Source: a virus (lineage: Duplodnaviria > Caudoviricetes). Taken from it: 64,000 nt of DNA. Every line of letters begins with the position of its first letter. The first letter of the stretch is position 1. This document shows positions 6,126 to 45,637 of this stretch, in pieces. Where the stretch lies: positions 32,001 through 96,000 of the IMG/VR virus record IMGVR_UViG_3300021399_000106. One strand, 5' to 3'. Both the position numbers and the translations under genes were made by a program. The notes beneath the pieces were generated by a model that was not told the origin of the DNA, ran no database searches, and saw only the letters and a program-made list of their open reading frames with translations.

Positions 6126-6183
6126 TATATTGTATAATATAAAGTAATTATTTCCCGGAGTGAGATTCTCCGTTGATATAGAT

Positions 6184-6259
6184 ACCGGCGTAGCTCAACT
6201 GGTAGAGTCGCGGTCTTCAAAACCGTTGGTTGTGGGTTCGAGTCCTACCGCCGGTACCA
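6184..6259 (+). tRNA. tRNA-Trp (TCA), opal-decoding
   Basis: Cloverleaf, loop CTTCAAA, short variable arm (not Sec), CCA end, upstream of trpS. Confidence 0.92.
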
Positions 6260-6328
6260 GTCAGTATAATGGTTTATGGATTCATTTCTATAAACCATTT
6301 TTATTTTATATAGGAAAGGAATTAAATT

Positions 6329-7315
6329 ATGCAAAGAATGATAAGTGGTATTAAACCAACAGGAAAAGTAACGTTAGGAAATTATATTGGTGCAATAAAA
6401 CAATTTATAAAATATCAAGATGATTATGATTTATGGGTTTTTATAGCGGATTTGCACGCATTAACACTTCCTATAAGCCAAAAGGAGTTACTCGAAAATA
6501 CGGAGAATTTAGCGGCGATTTATATAGCTGCTGGATTAGATCCTAAAAAGGTAACTTTATTTAAACAATCTAGTATTGTTGGACCTACAGAATTAAGTTG
6601 GTTACTAACTTGTAATACTGTTTTAGGTGAATTAACTAAAATGCCACAATATAAAAATTATTGTGAAAATCATAAAGGTGAAGGTGTTCCAACTGGTATG
6701 TTAATGTATCCTTCCTTAATGAGTGCCGATATATTATTATATGATGCTGATTATGTTCCAGTAGGGGAAGATCAAAAATCGCATGTTGATTTATGTAGAG
6801 ATATGGCTGAAAAGTTTAATAAAAGATATCCTGATAGTTTTAAATTACCTGAAACTATATTAGCTAAACAAGGTGCCAAAATAATGAGTTTATCAAATCC
6901 TACAAAGAAAATGAGTAAATCAGAATCTGATAAAGGAACAATTTATATTTTAGATGATATAGAAATATCTAAGAAAAAAATTATGAAAGCTTTAACTGAT
7001 AGTGAAGATAAAGTATATTATGATCCAATTAATAAACCAGGAATTTCAAATCTATTAACAATTTATAGCTGTTTAAGTGGAGAAGATATTAAAGTAATTG
7101 AAGATAGATATAAAGATGCTATTAATTATGGTATATTTAAGAAAGATTTATGTACATTATTAGAAAAGGAATTATTACCTATTCAAGAAAAAGTTAGAAA
7201 GTTAAAAGAAAGTGGAGATTTGGATTTAATATTATTTAATGGCTCATTATCTGCACAATCAGCTGCAAAAAGAAAAATTACAGAAATTTATAAAAAAGTT
7301 GGTTTATTAGATTAA
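6329..7315 (+). CDS. trpS: Tryptophanyl-tRNA synthetase
   Basis: SGIKPTG-TLGNYIGA, ADLHALT, VPVGEDQ and KMSKS motifs. Confidence 0.97.
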   Translation: MQRMISGIKPTGKVTLGNYIGAIKQFIKYQDDYDLWVFIADLHALTLPISQKELLENTENLAAIYIAAGLDPKKVTLFKQSSIVGPTELSWLLTCNTVLGELTKMPQYKNYCENHKGEGVPTGMLMYPSLMSADILLYDADYVPVGEDQKSHVDLCRDMAEKFNKRYPDSFKLPETILAKQGAKIMSLSNPTKKMSKSESDKGTIYILDDIEISKKKIMKALTDSEDKVYYDPINKPGISNLLTIYSCLSGEDIKVIEDRYKDAINYGIFKKDLCTLLEKELLPIQEKVRKLKESGDLDLILFNGSLSAQSAAKRKITEIYKKVGLLD

Positions 7316-7771: not shown

Positions 7772-7847
7772 AGGTCTTTAGTTTAATAGGTAAAATGATA
7801 GTCTCCAAAACTATAAGATGTGAGTTCGAATCTTACAGGGCCTGCCA
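7772..7847 (+). tRNA. tRNA-Trp (CCA)
   Basis: Cloverleaf, loop CTCCAAA, G73, CCA. Confidence 0.92.
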
Positions 7848-7864
7848 TAAAATTAAATATAATA

Positions 7865-7964
7865 AAGACAGTTACAGCAATTCTAAATGCTAGACAAATG
7901 GATAAGTCAATTTCCTGCTAAGAAATCATTTTGGGTTCAAATCCCAAGCAAATAAAACTGTCTT
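7865..7964 (+). ncRNA. Handle RNA 1 carrying a tRNA(GCT)-like body
   Basis: AAGACAGTT-ACAGCAA...AACTGTCTT; D arm, loop CTGCTAA and T arm inside; no CCA. Confidence 0.75.
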
Positions 7965-10816: not shown

Positions 10817-11233
10817 ATGAGTTTATATACTAGAGTATATGAAGATTTTATTAAAGCAAGAAAAGATAAAAATGAAGTAAATAAAAATATTTTAGGTTTA
10901 TTATATAATGCTTTAAAAAACAAAGCAATTGAATTAAGAGTTGATGAATTAACTGATGCTGATTCTAGTTCTGTAATTAAGAAAGTTTCTAAACAATTAG
11001 ATGAAGAAATTGAATGCAATGTAAAGGTTAATAGAACTGAAAAAGCAAATGAATTAACTTATCAAAAGAATTTAATTCAAGACTACTTACCAAAACAATT
11101 AAGTGAAGATGAAATTAAGACTATATTAAATACTCTAGAAGATAAAGCTATTCCTTCAGTAATGAAGTATTTTAAGACTAATTATAATGGTCTAGTAGAT
11201 ATGAGCTTAGTTAGTAAGCTCGCTAGACAATAA
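10817..11233 (+). CDS. GatB/YqeY domain protein
   Basis: YLPKQLSEDEI motif, size, tRNA-array context. Confidence 0.88.
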   Translation: MSLYTRVYEDFIKARKDKNEVNKNILGLLYNALKNKAIELRVDELTDADSSSVIKKVSKQLDEEIECNVKVNRTEKANELTYQKNLIQDYLPKQLSEDEIKTILNTLEDKAIPSVMKYFKTNYNGLVDMSLVSKLARQ

Positions 11234-11725: not shown

Positions 11726-11744
11726 TTTGAAAGGAATAATGTTT

Positions 11745-12284
11745 ATGAAAGATTTAGTAAAGGCTAGTAAGTATATTGCACTACTATTAAGGCATAAACC
11801 GGAAGAAGGAGATTTAAATCTCGACAAAGAAGGTTATTGTCCAACTGTTGATTTAATAAGAGCCTTAAAAAGAAAATTTAATTGGTTTACATTAAATGAT
11901 TTGTATGATATTGTAAATTCAGACGAAAAAGGTAGATATTCATTTAATGATAATAAAACCAAAATTAGGGCAAATCAAGGTCATTCAACAAATCAAGTAA
12001 ATATAACATTTAAAGAAGTAACACCTCCTGATATTTTATATCATGGAACAGCAACTAGATTTTTAAATGATATTTATAGAGAAGGTTTAAAACCGATGTC
12101 TAGACAATATGTTCATTTAAGTAAAGATATTGAAACTGCAACGAAAGTTGGTAGTAGACACGGAAATCTATATATTTTAGAAATTGATTGTAAGAAAATG
12201 GTTGAAGATGGATATAAATTTTATATTTCAGAAAACAATGTTTACTTAACAAAATTAGTTCCTAGAAAATATTTTAAAAATTAA
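11745..12284 (+). CDS. kptA: RNA 2'-phosphotransferase (Tpt1/KptA)
   Basis: LLRHKP, IRANQGHS, LYHGT, RQYVHLS and NNVYLT motifs. Confidence 0.95.
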   Translation: MKDLVKASKYIALLLRHKPEEGDLNLDKEGYCPTVDLIRALKRKFNWFTLNDLYDIVNSDEKGRYSFNDNKTKIRANQGHSTNQVNITFKEVTPPDILYHGTATRFLNDIYREGLKPMSRQYVHLSKDIETATKVGSRHGNLYILEIDCKKMVEDGYKFYISENNVYLTKLVPRKYFKN

Positions 12285-12425: not shown

Positions 12426-14057
12426 ATGGATTTTTATGGAACAATGCAAAAGGTACAAAATAATGTATCAGTAACTGAAAATGGTATGGAAGGATACAAG
12501 ACAACTTTCCACCCATTACTAGATATGAATTTCAAGGTAACTTCATATCGTAAGCTTACAGATAGAGATATCTGTAATGATATTGACCAAATAATTTCTC
12601 AAGCAGAGGATGCTCAATATCTATTAAAATTCTTATTTATGGTAAGAGATGTTAGAGATGGTTTAGGAGAAAGAAGATTATTTAGAGTTGCATTAAAGCA
12701 TCTATTAAATACTGCTAATTTCGATAATAAGACTGAAATAATTTCAGACTTAATTAAAACTCAAATTTCTAATTTTGGTAGATTTGATGACTTATTTATT
12801 TTCGTAGGTACCCCTTATGAAAATATCTTAATTAAAACAATTAAGAATCAATTAAAGTCAGACTATGAGAATATGTTAGCTAATAAGAGCATTTCATTAT
12901 TAGCTAAGTGGATGCCATCTGAAAATGCTTCTTCAAAGGAAACTAAGAAGTTAGCAACAGCAATTAGAAAGGCATTAAATGCAGATTCTAAGACTTATAG
13001 AAAAACTTTATCAGCATTAAGAGCATATTTAAAGGTAACTGAAACTTATACTTCAGCTAATGAATGGGATAAGATTGATTATAATCAAGTTCCTTCTAAG
13101 GCAAACTTAAAGTATAAGGATGCATTCTTAAAGCATGATGAGGAAAGACGTAGAGATTACTTAGCTGCATTAAGAGTTGGTGTTGATAAGGAAGGTAATA
13201 AGGTTAAGATTAATTCTTCAGTTAACTTCCCACATGAAATTGTTGCTAAGTATACTAAGAAAAGCTACTGGAGCTTACAATTATCTGAATATGATGAAGC
13301 ATTAGAACAATTATGGAAGAATTTAAAGCAAAAAGATGGTTTAAATAACACAATCGTTGTTAGAGATGGTTCTGGTTCAATGACTTCAACAATTGGTAAT
13401 GGCGATACAACTGCATTAGATGTTTCAACAGCATTAGCAATTTATTGTTCAGAACATTTAAATTCAGGATTTAAGGATAAATTCTTAACATTCTCAAGTA
13501 GAGCTAAGTTAATTGATTTAAGTGCTGAAACTAATTTACATAACAAATTAAATAAGGTATTTAAAGAGGATGATTGCTCAAATACAAACATTGAAGATGT
13601 ATTCGATGTAATTTTAAATACAGCTGTTAATGGTAATGTTGCACCTGAGGATATGCCAGCACAAGTATTAATTATTTCAGATATGGAATTTGATGGTGCT
13701 TATGGTGGAAATAGATTCAATGGTACAAGCAACGTATTCAAGAAAGCAGCTACTAAGTATGCCAATGCAGGTTACAAGTTACCTAAATTAGTATTCTGGA
13801 ATGTATGCTCTAGAACAAATACTATCCCAGTAACACAAAATGAAAATGGTGTAGTATTAGTATCAGGATTCTCAGTTAATACCTTAAATATGGTATTAAA
13901 TGGAAAGACTTCACCTTGGTTATCATTAGTAGATGAATTAACTACAGAAAAGTATAATTCAATTCCATTATTAGCTAATGTAGTGAAGGCTAATGTAAAG
14001 GTAAATACTACTAAGAGAACCTCTAAGTCAAATAAGACACCTGATTTCTTAAAGTAA
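12426..14057 (+). CDS. DUF2828-family helical + vWA protein (Ro60/TROVE-like architecture)
   Basis: TENG, RDVRDGLGER, AKWMPSE, MIDAS DGSGSM, ISDMEFD, VFWN and VSGFS motifs. Confidence 0.85.
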   Translation: MDFYGTMQKVQNNVSVTENGMEGYKTTFHPLLDMNFKVTSYRKLTDRDICNDIDQIISQAEDAQYLLKFLFMVRDVRDGLGERRLFRVALKHLLNTANFDNKTEIISDLIKTQISNFGRFDDLFIFVGTPYENILIKTIKNQLKSDYENMLANKSISLLAKWMPSENASSKETKKLATAIRKALNADSKTYRKTLSALRAYLKVTETYTSANEWDKIDYNQVPSKANLKYKDAFLKHDEERRRDYLAALRVGVDKEGNKVKINSSVNFPHEIVAKYTKKSYWSLQLSEYDEALEQLWKNLKQKDGLNNTIVVRDGSGSMTSTIGNGDTTALDVSTALAIYCSEHLNSGFKDKFLTFSSRAKLIDLSAETNLHNKLNKVFKEDDCSNTNIEDVFDVILNTAVNGNVAPEDMPAQVLIISDMEFDGAYGGNRFNGTSNVFKKAATKYANAGYKLPKLVFWNVCSRTNTIPVTQNENGVVLVSGFSVNTLNMVLNGKTSPWLSLVDELTTEKYNSIPLLANVVKANVKVNTTKRTSKSNKTPDFLK

Positions 14058-27280: not shown

Positions 27281-28285
27281 ATGAAGTATTTTGTTGTGAG
27301 TGATATTCACTCATTTGGAAATATTTTAGAAAAAACTTTAAAGAAGTGTGGTTTTAATAAAAGAGATAAAAATCATACTTTAATTGTTTGTGGAGATATT
27401 TTTGATAGAGGACTAGATACAATTAAAGTTTATAATTATTTAAAATCCATTCCTAAGAAAAGATGTATTTTAATTAGAGGAAATCATGAATCTCTTTATT
27501 TTAGTTTATTAAATAAGTATTATCCTGAATCACATGATTTTAGTAATGGTACCGTATCCACTTTTGTTCAAATAGCTGGATATGATTTAGATGTTCAATA
27601 TGACTTGAGATATGGATATCATATGTCCTATGGTTCATATTTTGAGTATGAACATATTGACCCTGAATGTAAAGATAAATGGAGAGATATTAAGAAAAAG
27701 GTAAAAGAGTCCGAAATTACTAAATGGTTACAATCTAAACAATGGATAAATTATTATGAATTAGATAACTATATATTTGTTCATTCATTTATTCCTTTAA
27801 AATTTCATGAAGAAGATTATAGAGGATTTAATGAAGATTATTGTATATATTATGGTTGGGTTCAAGCATTTGAGGAAAAACCTAATTGGCGTGAATCTAC
27901 TAATGAAGAATGGGATAAAGCAACTTGGGGTTGTGCATATACATTCTTTGATGCTGGTTTATTTAATCAAGAAAAAGTTAAAAATAAAATATTAGTTTGT
28001 GGACATTATAAATGTTCTGCATTTAATGAACATTATCTTAATATAGAAACAGATGATATTTATTATGGTAAAAATTTAATTGCAATTGATGCTACAACCG
28101 CTTTAAGTAATAAAATAAATGTATTAATAATAGATGAGGACGGAAAATGTTATGACCAAAATGGTTTATTGAAATATAAAAAACCAATACCCATTATAGA
28201 AACTGTAACAGTAAGTCCAGAAGAATACAAAAAATTGGTTGAAGAGGAATATCAAAAATATGCTAATGATGTAACAAATTCTTAG
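27281..28285 (+). CDS. Calcineurin-like metallophosphoesterase
   Basis: SDIH, GDIFDRG, RGNHE, FVHS and CGH motifs. Confidence 0.9.
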   Translation: MKYFVVSDIHSFGNILEKTLKKCGFNKRDKNHTLIVCGDIFDRGLDTIKVYNYLKSIPKKRCILIRGNHESLYFSLLNKYYPESHDFSNGTVSTFVQIAGYDLDVQYDLRYGYHMSYGSYFEYEHIDPECKDKWRDIKKKVKESEITKWLQSKQWINYYELDNYIFVHSFIPLKFHEEDYRGFNEDYCIYYGWVQAFEEKPNWRESTNEEWDKATWGCAYTFFDAGLFNQEKVKNKILVCGHYKCSAFNEHYLNIETDDIYYGKNLIAIDATTALSNKINVLIIDEDGKCYDQNGLLKYKKPIPIIETVTVSPEEYKKLVEEEYQKYANDVTNS

Positions 28286-39675: not shown

Positions 39676-40197
39676 ATGTATACTATTGAAACTAATATAG
39701 AATTACCTATTGCACACTGTTTATATAGAGGTGCATATAGTGGTTTATGCTGTGGTAATGTTTATAGAGATTTAAAAAATGATGGTGAAAAGGAAAGATA
39801 TGATTTAGGAGATTGTATATTTCCTATAATCCACGGTCATAATTATTTTGTAACTGTAGCATTAACAACAAATGAGCTAGATAAAAATGGAATGGTTGTA
39901 GATTTTAAGAAAATGAAGAAAATTATTCATGATTATTTTGACCAATATGACCATAGTATGATTCTAACACCTGATAATCCATTAACTCAAGCATATATTG
40001 AAAATTTTAAACAAAATGGTATTGATTTAAATAGAAGTAGATTATTTATTTGGAATGAAAATCCAACAGCCGAATATATGGCAAAATTATGGTATGATAT
40101 TATGTTAGAAAAATTTAAATCTGAAGGATTAAATGTAAATTCTTTGGCAATAACAGTTGAAGAAACATCACATAATAAAGTAACTTATACAGAATAG
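39676..40197 (+). CDS. queD: 6-carboxytetrahydropterin synthase
   Basis: AHCL, HGHNY, GMVVDF, DH, NPTAE, VEET. Confidence 0.9.
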   Translation: MYTIETNIELPIAHCLYRGAYSGLCCGNVYRDLKNDGEKERYDLGDCIFPIIHGHNYFVTVALTTNELDKNGMVVDFKKMKKIIHDYFDQYDHSMILTPDNPLTQAYIENFKQNGIDLNRSRLFIWNENPTAEYMAKLWYDIMLEKFKSEGLNVNSLAITVEETSHNKVTYTE

Positions 40198-40210
40198 AAA
40201 GGAAAGTAAT

Positions 40211-40510
40211 ATGGAATTAACAAGTAAATTTTTAGGTAAAGAATTTGAAGGATTTAAAGTAGTTAAATATTTTGTTAAGAATGAGTATAAAAAGGTTTAT
40301 AAGAATCCTAAACAAAAAAATCATAGAGCATATAGTTATGAATTATATAATGAAACTACTAAGCAACATTTAACTATTAGCGGTAATCAATTAAGATTAT
40401 TAAATGAAGGTAAAAGAACAATTTCTCAAATGTTATCAGTTGATAATAGAGGAGGAAACAAAAATCCTCAAATTAATGCCTATAAAAAGTGGTTAAAATC
40501 ACAAAAGTAG
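40211..40510 (+). CDS. Hypothetical basic protein
   Basis: GAAAGGA RBS. Confidence 0.65.
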   Translation: MELTSKFLGKEFEGFKVVKYFVKNEYKKVYKNPKQKNHRAYSYELYNETTKQHLTISGNQLRLLNEGKRTISQMLSVDNRGGNKNPQINAYKKWLKSQK

Positions 40511-40605
40511 AATAACCTTATTTTTAAGGTTATTTATTTATCGTATATAAATTTATATAACAATTTAAAAAATATAAATAACAAGAAATTTGAAAGGAAT
40601 AACAT

Positions 40606-40986
40606 ATGTATAATAAAGATAATAAGTTATATGTTGAATGAAAAGATATTGAAAATTATGTAACTGAATTAGCAATTGAAGTTTGTAGAGATTTAAATAA
40701 ATGTCCTAATGGAGTTTATGGAGTTCCTAGAGGCGGTTTAATTTTAGCAACCTTAATAAGTTATAAATTAAATATACCACTTTTATTAGCACCTACAAAG
40801 GATTGTCTTATTGTTGATGATATAGCTGATAGCGGTAGAACATTACTACACTACACTGAAAACGATACACAATTTAATAAATATTATATTTCAACAATGT
40901 TTTATCATAAGAGAAGTATGGTAAAACCTGATTATTATGCATTTGAAAAAACTGATGAATGGATTGTTTATCCTTGAGAAGAGTAG
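40606..40986 (+). CDS. Purine phosphoribosyltransferase-like (2 in-frame TGA)
   Basis: GVPRGG, LIVDDIADSGRT, WIVYP(W)E; absent from the ORF track. Confidence 0.88.
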
Positions 40987-40994
40987 GTTATAAT

Positions 40995-41705
40995 ATGGAA
41001 GAATTAAAAAGAGAAGAAAATAAGCATATTGGTTATACTCCATTAAGATTAAAATGACAGAATGGAGAGTTAACTAGGTTAAATTGAGATATTGTTATTA
41101 GAGATGAAGAATATTTTGGTTATCATTTAGGTCCTGATTTTGATAATTATGACGAAAGTGATAAGGAAAAATACCTATATAGATATGATACCTGATTTAT
41201 ATGTAAAAGAGATTGTCCTGAAGATAAAATAATTGATAATTTAATTTCATGTAGTAGAGACGAAATGCAAGTTAGATGAGGATTTAGCATTAAAGAGGAT
41301 TCTTATTTAAAATATAAATGGGATGAATATGACCTTAGAACTAATGTAAAATATAATATAACAAGAAATGATGAATTATTTTATGAAGGTTGCTGTGGCT
41401 CTTTAGAAGGTGCATATGTAAATGCAATGAAAATTATATATCAATTAGAGGATTCAGCAGCAGAGATTACTACTATAGACTGGAATAAAAATATAATAGG
41501 AACAAAAGTTTGGTATTGTGATCAACCAGCTACTATTCAAAGCGTTTATCGAAGTGAAATGTATCTAGTTCCGGATAAGGAATTTATAAAAGAATTTAAA
41601 GAACCTGAATCTTGAAAAGGTGAGGATTGAATGTATTGAGGCGACTATAAAGATGGTTTATATGTAGAAATATGAGATCCTCGAATTACTTGATTTAGAA
41701 AATAA
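40995..41705 (+). CDS. Hypothetical protein (9 in-frame TGA)
   Basis: Continuous 236-aa frame in code 4. Confidence 0.7.
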
Positions 41706-41745
41706 TGTATAATAACATATCATATAATTGAAAGGAAACTAAACT

Positions 41746-42522
41746 ATGATAAGAGTAAATGAAAATGGTGAAAATCAAATAGGACTTGTAAATATCTTTC
41801 CTTCTATTAATGGAGAAGGTCACGCATCTGGTAAACCAACGGTATTTATTAGAGTGTTTGGTTGTAATTTACGTTGCGTTTGGTGTGACACAAAAGAAAG
41901 TTGGACTGAAGATAATTTATTAAAGGTATATCCTGAAAGATTAAATAATGTTTTAAAATGGAAAACTGCTAAAGAAATATTTAATGAAGTAGAATCATTA
42001 GAACAAAATTGGTATCATAAATCTATTTGTTTAACAGGTGGTGAACCTTTACATTTAGCCAATACTGATTTTATGTTAAATGAATTATTACCATTATTTG
42101 TAAATGCAAATTATGATGTAAGTATTGAAACTGATGGTGGAATTGATTATAAACCTTATAAGGAAAAATTTGGTGATTCTAAGGTAATTAATGGTAATGG
42201 AGATAGAGTAGGTGTAACTATTATTGCTGATTATAAGTTACCTTCTTCAGGAATGACTAAAATGATGATTAAGGATAATTTTAAAATATATTCTGAAATG
42301 GATTTAATAAAAATGGTTATATCTGATAATGAAGAAGATTGGAAGGAATTAGAAAATGTTGTTAATTCCGGAACTAAAGCAAGTATTTATTTAAGTCCTT
42401 GTTTTGGACAAGTTACAATGAACAGAATTCCTGAATTTGTAATGAAACATTCTGATAAACCTATCAGAGCACAAATTCAAGTACATAAAATATTTTGGGA
42501 GCCAACAAAAAAGGACGTGTAA
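41746..42522 (+). CDS. queE: 7-carboxy-7-deazaguanine synthase (radical SAM)
   Basis: SINGEG, FIRVFGCNLRCVWCDT, TGGEP, QVHKIFW. Confidence 0.93.
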   Translation: MIRVNENGENQIGLVNIFPSINGEGHASGKPTVFIRVFGCNLRCVWCDTKESWTEDNLLKVYPERLNNVLKWKTAKEIFNEVESLEQNWYHKSICLTGGEPLHLANTDFMLNELLPLFVNANYDVSIETDGGIDYKPYKEKFGDSKVINGNGDRVGVTIIADYKLPSSGMTKMMIKDNFKIYSEMDLIKMVISDNEEDWKELENVVNSGTKASIYLSPCFGQVTMNRIPEFVMKHSDKPIRAQIQVHKIFWEPTKKDV

Positions 42523-42526
42523 AAAT

Positions 42527-43009
42527 ATGATTAATTTAAATGGAGTAAGAGGCAGTGGTAAAACTGTAAATTTAGTAAAGTTAGCTAATAATAATTATGA
42601 ATTAGGACATCTATCTGTAATTATTACAATATGACCACATATGAGATTTATTTATAAAAATGCTGGTTTAAATGAAAATATACCAGTTATCACATTAAGA
42701 CAATATTTAGAGGATCCTAAGGCATTTGATAGCTATGATATTTTTATAGATGAACTTGAATATGTTTTAAGTACTAATTTATTTATCCACGGTAATTTGA
42801 GAGCATTTACTACCGAAAAGGAAAATGTAAAAGAACTTAAGAGAGAAGATTGGGATAAAAATTATCGTTTAAATTCTCTTATAGAAACTACTATTAACGA
42901 ATTTAAGAAAACATTTGGTTATAAGTATGAAGAAATACTTAATACAATATCAAAAGAAGATATTATAAAAGGTGTAGAAAAAATATTAAAGGAGATTCAA
43001 AATGATTAA
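42527..43009 (+). CDS. Small P-loop protein (1 in-frame TGA)
   Basis: GVRGSGKT, IFIDE. Confidence 0.65.
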
Positions 43010-43391
43010 AGTATTTATTAGTGTACCAATGAAAAATAGAAAAAAGGAAGATATTGAATATTCAATTCGTAAGATGAAAAGAATTGCTAGATCATATTTA
43101 GCAGAAAATGATATTGAAGCAGATAATATTGACTTTATTAATACTATTGTTTCAGAAAATCCTCCTAAAGAGGTGAATGAAAAAATTTGGTATTTAGGAG
43201 CAGCAATTCAATTATTAGCTAAGGCAGATTATTTAGTAACTATAAATTATGAAGATAGTTATGGTTATTCTGGATGTGAAATTGAAAGACACGCCTTTTA
43301 TGCTTATAAAGGAGAAGATAACATAATACAAATACCATTAGCTTATATTTTATCAGACAATGAAAAATTAAATTACAACACGGAAAAGTAA
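43002..43391 (+). CDS. Nucleoside deoxyribosyltransferase-like / DUF4406-like protein
   Basis: KVFISVPM...AD...SGCEIE. Confidence 0.6.
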   Translation: MIKVFISVPMKNRKKEDIEYSIRKMKRIARSYLAENDIEADNIDFINTIVSENPPKEVNEKIWYLGAAIQLLAKADYLVTINYEDSYGYSGCEIERHAFYAYKGEDNIIQIPLAYILSDNEKLNYNTEK

Positions 43392-43416
43392 TTTAATAGT
43401 TAAGGAGCTATAGTTT

Positions 43417-43809
43417 ATGCCTTATGATAAAGATATTATAGCCAGATATGAATATCAAGCTTTAGGAAGAGTTATTGCAGTTGACTTTGATAGTACAATA
43501 ACACAACATAGGCCCTATCCTCAAAAAGCACCTTTAAATGAGAAAGCTAAAAAATATCTGGATAAACTAAATGAAAAAGGATTCAGAATTGTTTTATGGA
43601 CGTCTAGATTAGAAGATGATTTAGAAGAAGCTTATGATAGATGTATAAATGAATTTGGATTATCATATTTAATTAAAGATAATTCAGATCTTATTCACGG
43701 TGCAACAGGTAAACTTGTAGCATCATTCTATATTGATGATAACTCTTATGTAAATAAAAAAGTACCGTGGAGAAAGATATATAAATACTTATTAAAAAAA
43801 TACAAATAA
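43417..43809 (+). CDS. HAD-superfamily phosphatase
   Basis: AVDFDSTI, LWTSR, K...YIDD. Confidence 0.85.
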   Translation: MPYDKDIIARYEYQALGRVIAVDFDSTITQHRPYPQKAPLNEKAKKYLDKLNEKGFRIVLWTSRLEDDLEEAYDRCINEFGLSYLIKDNSDLIHGATGKLVASFYIDDNSYVNKKVPWRKIYKYLLKKYK

Positions 43810-43879
43810 TTGTATAATATATATAACGCAGTTCGAACTCAAAATCCTGCGTAATAAATTAAAACTAAAGGAGATAAAA

Positions 43880-44797
43880 ATGGCAAAAAAATTGAGTGAA
43901 GAAAAATTAAATGTAACAGAAACATTGGCTGCTACGCATCTAGGTAAGAAATCAGCTGGTAGTGAAAAGTATGATAAAAGCTTACTTGTAGCTGTTCCTA
44001 GAATTGAAAACAGAACCGCTTATGGTATTGAAGAAAGTAATTTACCATTTGTAGGTTATGATGTTTGGGATGCTTATGAAGTATCATTTATGACTACTAA
44101 TAACGTTCCTTGTATGTATGTTTTAAAAATTAAATATCCTTGTAATAGTCCTTATATTGTAGAATCTAAGTCATTAAAATTATATTTAAATTCTTTCAAT
44201 ATGACACCTTTAAAGGATACTATTGAAGAAAGTACACAATACTTTTTAGATACTGTTAAAAAGGATTTAGAAGAGCTTTTAAAAACAACAGTTGAATTAC
44301 ACTTACATACAGAATATTCTAAATCAAAATGTAAAATGTTTAAAGGTTATACTAATTTAAAGAAATTAGTAAATATGAATGAATTACATTGCGAAAAGTT
44401 TAATGAAGCACCGGAACTATTAAGCTTTGATAGCTCTAATGCAAACAAGGAATTAAAAATTACTTTTGATTCAATGAGATCAAATTGTAGAGTAACACAT
44501 CAACCTGACTTCGCAGATGCATTTATTAGAATTAAATGCAAAGATGGTGTTGATTTAACTAATCTAACTAAATATTTAATTTCATTTAGAAAAGAGTGGC
44601 ATTTCCATGAAGAATGTGTTGAAATGATTTATAAGAGATTATTAGATAAATATAATCCAGAAATTCTTATGGTAGGTGCTTTATATACAAGACGTGGTGG
44701 AATTGATATTTGCCCTATGAGAGCATTAAATAGTGATTTATTAGATAAAGAATTAATTTCAATTAATAAATATACTAAGAAAACTATTAAACAATAA
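43880..44797 (+). CDS. queF: 7-cyano-7-deazaguanine reductase (bimodular)
   Basis: DVWDAYEVS, VESKSLKLYLNSF, SNCRVTHQPD, FHEECVE, YTRRGGIDI. Confidence 0.93.
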   Translation: MAKKLSEEKLNVTETLAATHLGKKSAGSEKYDKSLLVAVPRIENRTAYGIEESNLPFVGYDVWDAYEVSFMTTNNVPCMYVLKIKYPCNSPYIVESKSLKLYLNSFNMTPLKDTIEESTQYFLDTVKKDLEELLKTTVELHLHTEYSKSKCKMFKGYTNLKKLVNMNELHCEKFNEAPELLSFDSSNANKELKITFDSMRSNCRVTHQPDFADAFIRIKCKDGVDLTNLTKYLISFRKEWHFHEECVEMIYKRLLDKYNPEILMVGALYTRRGGIDICPMRALNSDLLDKELISINKYTKKTIKQ

Positions 44798-44812
44798 GGA
44801 GGATATTTGATT

Positions 44813-45637
44813 ATGAAATGTATTGTTAGTTTAAGTGGTGGTAGAGATAGCGCCACATGTTTAGGTCTTGCCGTAGAAAGATATGGTTCAGAAAATGTTT
44901 ACGCTGTAGGATTTGAATATGGAAGTAAACATCCTCAAGAATTAGATAGAGCACAACAAATTGCAGATTATTATGGTGTAGATTTCCAAGTTATTCAAAT
45001 CTTACCTGAAATCTTTAAAGGCTCTACATGTACAATGTTAAAAGGCTCTAAGGAAGAAGTGCAAAAAGGTAAAACTTATACAGAAATTCAAGCTGAAAAG
45101 GGAGGTAAAGTAGATACTTATGTTCCTTTTAGAAATGGATTATTTTCAGCATTTGTTGCAGCAAGAGCTGAAAGTCTAGTTCAACAATTTGATGAAGATG
45201 TTGTTATTATGCTTGGGCAACATGCAGATGATAGTGGATACTACATTGATGAAAATGGAGAAGAGCATTTAGATGATTCTAAGGCTGCTTATCCAGATTG
45301 TTCTGTTAATTTTGTAAGAGCATTTGAAAAAGTAGTAGCTATAAGTTCTGTAGGTAGAGTTCATTATGAAGCTCCATTTGTAAAGAACCATAAATGGGAA
45401 TTAATTAAAACAGGATTAGAGTTAGCAAAGCCTGTTCCTTATGAATTATGTTTAAGCTGTTATGACCCTATTGAAGAAAATGGCGAAGTTAAAGAATGTA
45501 TGCAATGTGCTACATGTTTAGATGTTATTGATAACACAAGAAAAGCATTAGAAGCTATTAAGAATTCTAATCCAGAATTGTATAATAATTTAATAAAAAA
45601 AGATTATTATAAAAAGTATTTAAAAGAGGTAGCTTAA
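44813..45637 (+). CDS. queC: 7-cyano-7-deazaguanine synthase
   Basis: SGGRDS, TYVPFRN, YPDC, SCY...CMQCATC. Confidence 0.93.
   Translation: MKCIVSLSGGRDSATCLGLAVERYGSENVYAVGFEYGSKHPQELDRAQQIADYYGVDFQVIQILPEIFKGSTCTMLKGSKEEVQKGKTYTEIQAEKGGKVDTYVPFRNGLFSAFVAARAESLVQQFDEDVVIMLGQHADDSGYYIDENGEEHLDDSKAAYPDCSVNFVRAFEKVVAISSVGRVHYEAPFVKNHKWELIKTGLELAKPVPYELCLSCYDPIEENGEVKECMQCATCLDVIDNTRKALEAIKNSNPELYNNLIKKDYYKKYLKEVA

Follow-up and report, generated by a model that had tools for sequence, protein, structure and literature searches.

A module consisting of a suppressor tRNA, a tryptophanyl-tRNA synthetase (TrpRS) and RF1 has been described in two Jade phages (Borges et al., bioRxiv 10.1101/2021.08.26.457843). 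For two other phage pairs, AP1, with a G73 tRNA, and HF2, with an A73 tRNA, tryptophan was incorporated at UGA only when the phage's own TrpRS was present; E. coli tRNA-Trp was likewise a substrate of the HF2 enzyme (Seki et al. 2025, PMC12636597). In the E. coli TrpRS-tRNA co-crystal, Glu155 forms two hydrogen bonds to the discriminator base G73 and Gln152 stacks on this base; the Gln152/Glu155 pair is said to be strictly conserved among bacterial TrpRS (PMC12135181). Here we describe a phage locus that is well supported as a further example of the published tRNA(UCA)-TrpRS code-change kit, the novelty being confined to one molecular detail.

The source phage record in IMG/VR is 166,546 bp (166.5 kb) long, with a GC content of 28% and a completeness of 93% as estimated by CheckV. 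The window analyzed here is a stretch of 64,000 nucleotides corresponding to bases 32001-96000 of this record, and coordinates are those of the window unless stated otherwise. The virus is a large ruminant gut (rumen) phage, and near-identical DNA is present in sheep and bovine gut metagenomes. ARAGORN predicted 32 tRNA genes across the window, one of which has the anticodon TCA; this is the single tRNA(UCA) gene in the whole record. One of the ARAGORN calls, a 72-nt 'tRNA-Ser(gct)' at 7884-7955, is absent from the output of the Rfam tRNA model and is either doubtful or a tRNA-like but degenerate element.

The gene for tRNA(UCA), the opal decoder, occupies positions 6184-6259 on the plus strand. 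ARAGORN delineates a gene of 76 nt, which matches the Rfam tRNA model (65.8 bits, E = 6e-13), and the original prediction of a tRNA with the anticodon TCA located 69 nt upstream of trpS is confirmed. The acceptor strand ACCGGCG (6184-6190) pairs with CGCCGGT (6249-6255) and is followed by A73 at 6256 and an encoded CCA (6257-6259); the A73 discriminator and the acceptor sequence, both pointed out in that prediction, are read directly from the DNA. The molecule forms a 7/5 cloverleaf with a 5-nt variable loop. From the bacterial tRNA-Trp identity set, it keeps a single element, A1:U72, and departs from the rest with A73, the UCA anticodon, C2:G71 and C3:G70. The phage also encodes a separate tRNA-Trp(CCA) (7772-7847, plus strand; ARAGORN and sequence reading), which has the canonical A1:U72, G2:C71 and G3:C70 pairs as well as G73, the latter as previously noted, and presumably serves as a substrate for the host TrpRS. 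The body of tRNA(UCA) is 75-79% identical to tRNA-Trp of the host lineage and equally similar to the phage tRNA-Thr(UGU), and its origin is accordingly ambiguous. ARAGORN labels the gene 'SeC', and a tRNA-Sec identity was considered and rejected: the molecule has neither the extended 8/5 or 9/4 stack nor a long variable arm. Given the standard cloverleaf and the short variable loop, the label mirrors the anticodon alone.

Upstream of tRNA(UCA), at a distance of approximately 45 nt, sequence reading reveals a promoter-like extended -10 element, TATTGTATAATAT (6128-6140, plus strand), which contains the motif TGTATAAT at 6131-6138. The shorter motif is present in 43 copies in the genome, 29 of them intergenic, and 4 of the 5 genome copies of the 13-nt form are inside the tRNA region; a generic scan for sigma-70 -35/-10 elements found no enrichment over shuffled sequences. 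We also considered TGTATAAT as a possible marker of TGA-free genes and rejected this role because 13 of the 18 genes directly downstream of the motif are TGA-free, compared with 61% genome-wide; being non-specific for such genes, the motif carries no timing information. The gap between the promoter-like element and the tRNA contains a small 5' leader hairpin, CGGAG/CTCCG (6156-6172, plus strand), that was predicted by RNA folding and is conserved in the closest relative, L008. Between the tRNA and trpS, the terminator scan and RNA folding identify a terminator-like hairpin (6268-6299; 13 pairs, 3 of which are G:C) followed by a T run, the complete element spanning 6268-6309 on the plus strand. 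Five terminator-like sites were found against 1.1 expected. The spacer downstream of tRNA(UCA) is 97% identical in L008, with the terminator-like hairpin conserved, and a hairpin follows tRNA(UCA) in L007 and L161 too. A promoter motif at about 6130 shared by the two genes had been proposed; the motif does exist at 6131 and is recurrent, but its sharing is weakened by the hairpin between the genes, so that a single promoter may not drive both of them. Three metatranscriptome runs and one DNA run compared with the locus yielded mostly tRNA-like pieces of other organisms and no usable evidence of transcription or co-transcription.

The trpS gene (6329-7315, plus strand), preceded by a ribosome-binding site, GGAAAGG (6313-6319, plus strand; identified by sequence reading), 9 nt 5' of its ATG, encodes a bacterial-type TrpRS of 328 amino acids. 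The open reading frame contains no in-frame TGA, in agreement with the prediction. The product matches PF00579 (E = 6e-65), aligns end to end with the Geobacillus TrpRS 1i6k (E = 6e-91), and is the sole aminoacyl-tRNA synthetase in the record among the three families searched (PF00579, PF00749 and PF00587). No T-box or any other Rfam element was found in front of trpS by Rfam search. Alignments with 1i6k and E. coli TrpS show that the phage enzyme keeps the class Ic motifs, namely, TLGN, KMSKS, the Trp-binding Asp of ADILLY, and GEDQ; Tyr270 and Gly271, located near nucleotide 34, are conserved as well.

The two residues that contact G73 are replaced: in an ungapped alignment, Gln152 of E. coli corresponds to Ser151 of the phage enzyme, and Glu155 corresponds to Asp154. 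The Glu-to-Asp replacement is a mild change because E153D in B. subtilis TrpRS resulted in an activity loss of just 33% (PMC12135181). In the set comprising the window TrpRS and its best 120 homologs (64-98% identity), the first position is occupied by Ser in 107 of the 121 sequences, Pro in 10 and Ala in 4, and the second position by Asp in 111. The Gln/Glu pair is found in 158 of 160 other TrpRS: all 80 metagenome sequences, a background set of generic cellular enzymes with 40-51% identity, and 78 of 80 sequences from representative genomes, the two exceptions being located on recoded-phage contigs binned into MAGs. Scanning IMG/VR with a single protein recovered no TrpRS relatives, and an alignment-based scan recovered five TrpRS loci. 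The Ser/Asp change in phage TrpRS was not mentioned in the literature that we searched.

Every tRNA(UCA) found to accompany a TrpRS of the Ser|Pro/Asp type, that is, those of the window, L008, L007, L010/L047, L138, L137, L139 and L161, has C2:G71, C3:G70, A73 and CCA. Comparison of seven family members revealed compensatory changes at 13 of the 20 stem pairs, including acceptor pairs 4 to 7, indicating that the fold is under selection, whereas the 2:71 and 3:70 pairs are C:G in all seven. Phage TrpRS that have Gln/Glu (L011/L012 and L013) accompany G73 suppressors. In L008, the trpS DNA is 97% identical and the flanks are near-identical, but the tRNA(UCA) (L008:249-323) is only 64% identical (49 of 76 positions), with the common parts limited to the ACC...GGU-A-CCA ends and the anticodon arm. 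This pattern suggests that the tRNA gene has been exchanged in the manner of a cassette. The tRNA(UCA) of L137 (L137:3147-3222), with an ACCCCGA/UCGGGGU acceptor, A73 and CCA, has an aberrant T arm lacking the TTCGA loop and was missed by ARAGORN.

In the relatives, adjacency is not conserved: the tRNA and trpS can be as close as about 0.1 kb or as distant as about 10 kb. At the far end of this range, in L047, tRNA(UCA) is located immediately 3' of the tmRNA (L047:1592-2009), about 10 kb from trpS; the phage studied here also encodes a tmRNA, with the tag ANSIKNKIANFFRGFASQRVAALA, upstream of the window (genome positions 27577-27991, L051:12577-12991).

In the phylogenetic tree, all phage TrpRS belong to one clade (support 100/98) and the main Ser/Asp group is supported at 99/99, with L161 forming a long branch elsewhere within the phage clade. 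The Ser|Pro/Asp clade spans 49-98% identity. The free tree implies two changes of the enzyme type, and a single origin of Ser|Pro/Asp is not rejected (p-AU = 0.48); all these enzymes may thus descend from one ancestor. The association between the enzyme and tRNA types should therefore be read as joint retention over deep divergence rather than as repeated independent co-variation. The 232-kb complete phage that includes L014 (L233-L244) encodes a Gln/Glu TrpRS and shows a code-4 signal at the examined locus. Neither ARAGORN (5 RNA genes) nor a pattern search detected a tRNA(UCA) in this phage, the decoder being either missing or undetectable, so that L014 adds no data point on the enzyme-tRNA pairing.

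Considered together, these features suggest that the locus probably encodes a code-change pair in which tRNA(UCA) receives its tryptophan from the phage TrpRS and which is insulated from the host. The insulation would involve both partners, the tRNA that is devoid of G73, G2:C71, G3:C70 and C34, and the enzyme that carries Ser/Asp instead of Gln/Glu. Charging of tRNA(UCA) by the host TrpRS would be poor because G73 is lost, the 2:71 and 3:70 pairs are flipped, and position 34 is U. The partly orthogonal pair envisaged in the original prediction gains support at the level of comparative sequence analysis from the Ser/Pro + Asp clade, its partner tRNAs with A73, C2:G71 and C3:G70, and the Gln/Glu sisters with their G73 suppressors; its experimental precedent is provided by other pairs, AP1 and HF2 (PMC12636597). 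More tentatively, we consider it possible that the Ser|Pro/Asp swap is a natural specificity switch to A73/C2:G71/C3:G70 tRNAs. Such a switch would create a charging route exclusive to the phage and inaccessible to the host enzyme and would make replication dependent on the kit, and the tRNA gene would be swappable as long as the acceptor end is kept, as in L008. On the enzyme side, exclusivity may fail, given the activity of the HF2 enzyme on E. coli tRNA-Trp.

Alternatively, the host TrpRS might charge tRNA(UCA) sufficiently, with the phage TrpRS being a general booster of the Trp-tRNA supply, a role also ascribed to other aminoacyl-tRNA synthetase genes of large phages, and with Ser/Asp being neutral or otherwise used. 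However, the G73-reading residues, present as Gln/Glu in nearly all the TrpRS of the comparison sets, are replaced across a clade of 49-98% identity, and the tRNAs of this clade hold A73, C2:G71 and C3:G70 amid freely varying other stem pairs. Borges et al., who observed TrpRS in just two of the recoded genomes, proposed that charging is normally left to the enzymes of the host, and 13 of 13 tRNA(UCA) assayed by mass spectrometry in E. coli extract inserted tryptophan (PMC12636597). By contrast, the A73 tRNA of HF2 showed no activity in E. coli extract unless its own enzyme was supplied (PMC12636597), and for B. subtilis TrpRS, the G73A change in the tRNA alone incurred an approximately 9-fold charging cost (PMC12135181). 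The charging of canonical tRNA-Trp by HF2 TrpRS (PMC12636597) is in line with a supply booster, and the L014 phage, with its Gln/Glu TrpRS and no tRNA(UCA) detected by ARAGORN, conforms to the same scenario. On balance, we regard sufficient charging by the host enzyme as unlikely.

Whichever enzyme charges the tRNA, comparative sequence evidence establishes, as had been anticipated for this locus, that TGA encodes tryptophan in this phage, and it excludes glycine, cysteine and selenocysteine. In a greedy set of 238 ORFs, 92 contain in-frame TGA and 61% have none. The totals of 231 TGA and 364 TGG codons, together 1.19% of all codons, imply that approximately 40% of tryptophans are spelled TGA, and the open-frame cover rises over much of the window once TGA is taken as sense. 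Three lines of evidence assign these codons to tryptophan. First, homologs have W in the TGA columns: in the SNF2 helicase, 4 of the 6 TGA columns contain W in 43-57 of the 57 homologs (28-51% identity; W background 1.2%), the remaining two being aromatic or hydrophobic, and in PhoH, all 5 TGA columns contain W in at least 26 of the 29 homologs. Second, TGA and TGG interchange with the syntenic relative L049, where TGA of the window is matched by TGA in 10 cases, by TGG in 5 and by other codons in 4, and TGG of the window is matched by TGG in 37 cases, by TGA in 1 and by other codons in 6. Third, the nucleotide 3' of in-frame TGA is like that following TGG and unlike that following true stops. 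The last 10 codons of genes show no excess of TGA (13 observed, 11 expected), and hence there is no sign that this codon doubles as a stop.

The split between TGA and TGG among genes is non-random (chi2 = 226, df 52, p = 1e-23), with 31 genes using a single tryptophan codon, TGA only or TGG only, against 5.8 expected. The recoded genes encode DNA polymerase A, a DnaB-like helicase, primase, the SNF2 helicase, NrdD, PhoH, SbcCD-like exonucleases and a tail-fibre protein.

The clade sister to the phage TrpRS, at 55-60% identity, is made up of gut and rumen MAGs of the Anaeroplasmatales, Acholeplasmatales and Bacilli, with a GC content of 26-35%. In five candidate host MAGs, tRNA-Trp(CCA) ends in GCCCCU-G73-CCA, no tRNA(UCA) was found, and two class-I release factors are encoded by each, one with the RF2 motif SPF; GGQ is present. 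In a host of this kind, UGA is a stop codon and TrpRS is built for G73. Hence the locus points toward Anaeroplasmatales/Acholeplasmatales-like rumen bacteria as hosts, and these relationships make Bacilli of this type the likely ones. It appears very improbable that the host itself uses TGA = Trp (code 4, Mycoplasma-like), with the phage mirroring the host and its tRNA and enzyme acting as supplements. The low GC content of the phage and the origin of the nearest cellular TrpRS from Mollicutes-related MAGs would be compatible with such a host, but the predominance of TGA-free ORFs and the sharp separation of TGG-only from TGA-rich genes argue against it, as do the 20-kb loci around trpS in the candidate host MAGs, where codes 11 and 4 yield equal open-frame cover, and the combination of RF2 with tRNA-Trp(CCA), in the absence of tRNA(UCA), in the five MAGs. 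Hardly credible at all is the insertion of selenocysteine, glycine or cysteine by tRNA(UCA), or its being a non-functional relic, because the ARAGORN label tRNA-SeC and the precedent of TGA = Gly in code 25 are set against Trp at the TGA columns of homologs, an ordinary 7/5 cloverleaf with a short variable loop, compensatory pair changes among family members, and an adjoining enzyme that is a TrpRS.

The code-change pair would operate as follows. The kit, tRNA(UCA) and trpS, which is itself written in the standard code, would be expressed first; the phage TrpRS would put tryptophan on tRNA(UCA), and Trp-tRNA(UCA) would then compete at UGA against the host RF2. Decoding of UGA would open approximately 40% of the phage genes, including those for DNA polymerase, helicase, primase, NrdD, exonucleases and the tail fibre. 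Because the replication machinery is recoded, the code switch would have to come early, ahead of replication. The 166.5-kb, 93% complete record contains no RF-1 or PCRF domain, both of which are matched in the control genomes and candidate host MAGs, and no phage means of blunting the host RF2 is evident.

Several other gene groups in the window are of interest in their own right. Within or adjoining the tRNA array, three genes (10817-11233, 11727-12284 and 12426-14057) encode YqeY (GatB-like, tRNA-binding), a Tpt1/KptA RNA 2'-phosphotransferase and a DUF2828/DUF7788 (TROVE/Ro60-like) protein, a trio that suggests an RNA repair or RNA quality-control set. At 32-1840, there are TGA-free NAD salvage genes for NAPRTase and a cytidylyltransferase-like (NMNAT-type) protein; in the syntenic region of L007, genes for NAD synthase and an isochorismatase are present as well. 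The mostly TGA-free region 39676-45637 encodes PTPS/QueD, a radical SAM QueE-like protein, GTP cyclohydrolase I and QueC, these names being taken from homologous L049 genes. It likely represents a 7-deazaguanine (preQ0-type) pathway, which in turn suggests modification of DNA or tRNA.

The locus adds to the small set of phages with both halves of a stop-codon reassignment, and, if the proposed mechanism is correct, implies that a kit of this type can function in the absence of a phage release factor and can gate not just late genes but also those for replication. The new point is that a phage TrpRS clade has altered both discriminator-reading residues and its partner tRNAs have altered the discriminator and the two adjacent pairs. 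These changes of residues and bases provide a testable natural recipe for TrpRS/tRNA orthogonality that is relevant to expanded genetic codes.

Among the described systems, the Jade module (Borges et al.) resembles the present locus in that a standard-code tRNA(UCA) and TrpRS are encoded in a large gut phage with a predicted Firmicutes host, recoding affects a subset of the genes, and the phage is proposed to switch from the host code to code 4. The differences lie in the release factor, the position and the recoded genes. The Jade module includes RF1, whereas the record analyzed here has neither an RF1 nor an RF2 domain. [quoted passage not shown] Unlike in the Jade phages, DNA polymerase, helicase, primase and NrdD are recoded. 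The terminator-like hairpin that separates tRNA(UCA) from trpS is a further feature that distinguishes the present locus from the known systems. As judged from their published description, the HF2 and AP1 systems share with our locus the co-location of the phage TrpRS with tRNA(UCA) and, in the case of HF2, also A73, and both tRNAs require the phage enzyme for activity in E. coli extract (PMC12636597); the main text of Seki et al. makes no mention of the Gln/Glu positions of the enzymes or of the 2:71 and 3:70 pairs. The AP1 TrpRS is a different protein from the one studied here, with Leu6-Thr7 against Ile5-Ser6. Compared with the canonical E. coli TrpRS-tRNA-Trp pair (PMC12135181), the fold and catalytic motifs are alike, but Gln152 is replaced with Ser and Glu155 with Asp, and A73, C2:G71, C3:G70 and U34 take the place of G73, G2:C71, G3:C70 and C34. 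Finally, A73-type tryptophan identity in a bacterial setting is also known from CPR bacteria, which use an archaeal-derived TrpRS (PMC5370408), whereas in the present phage, a bacterial-type enzyme that is sister to Acholeplasmatales-like TrpRS appears to have become adapted to A73.
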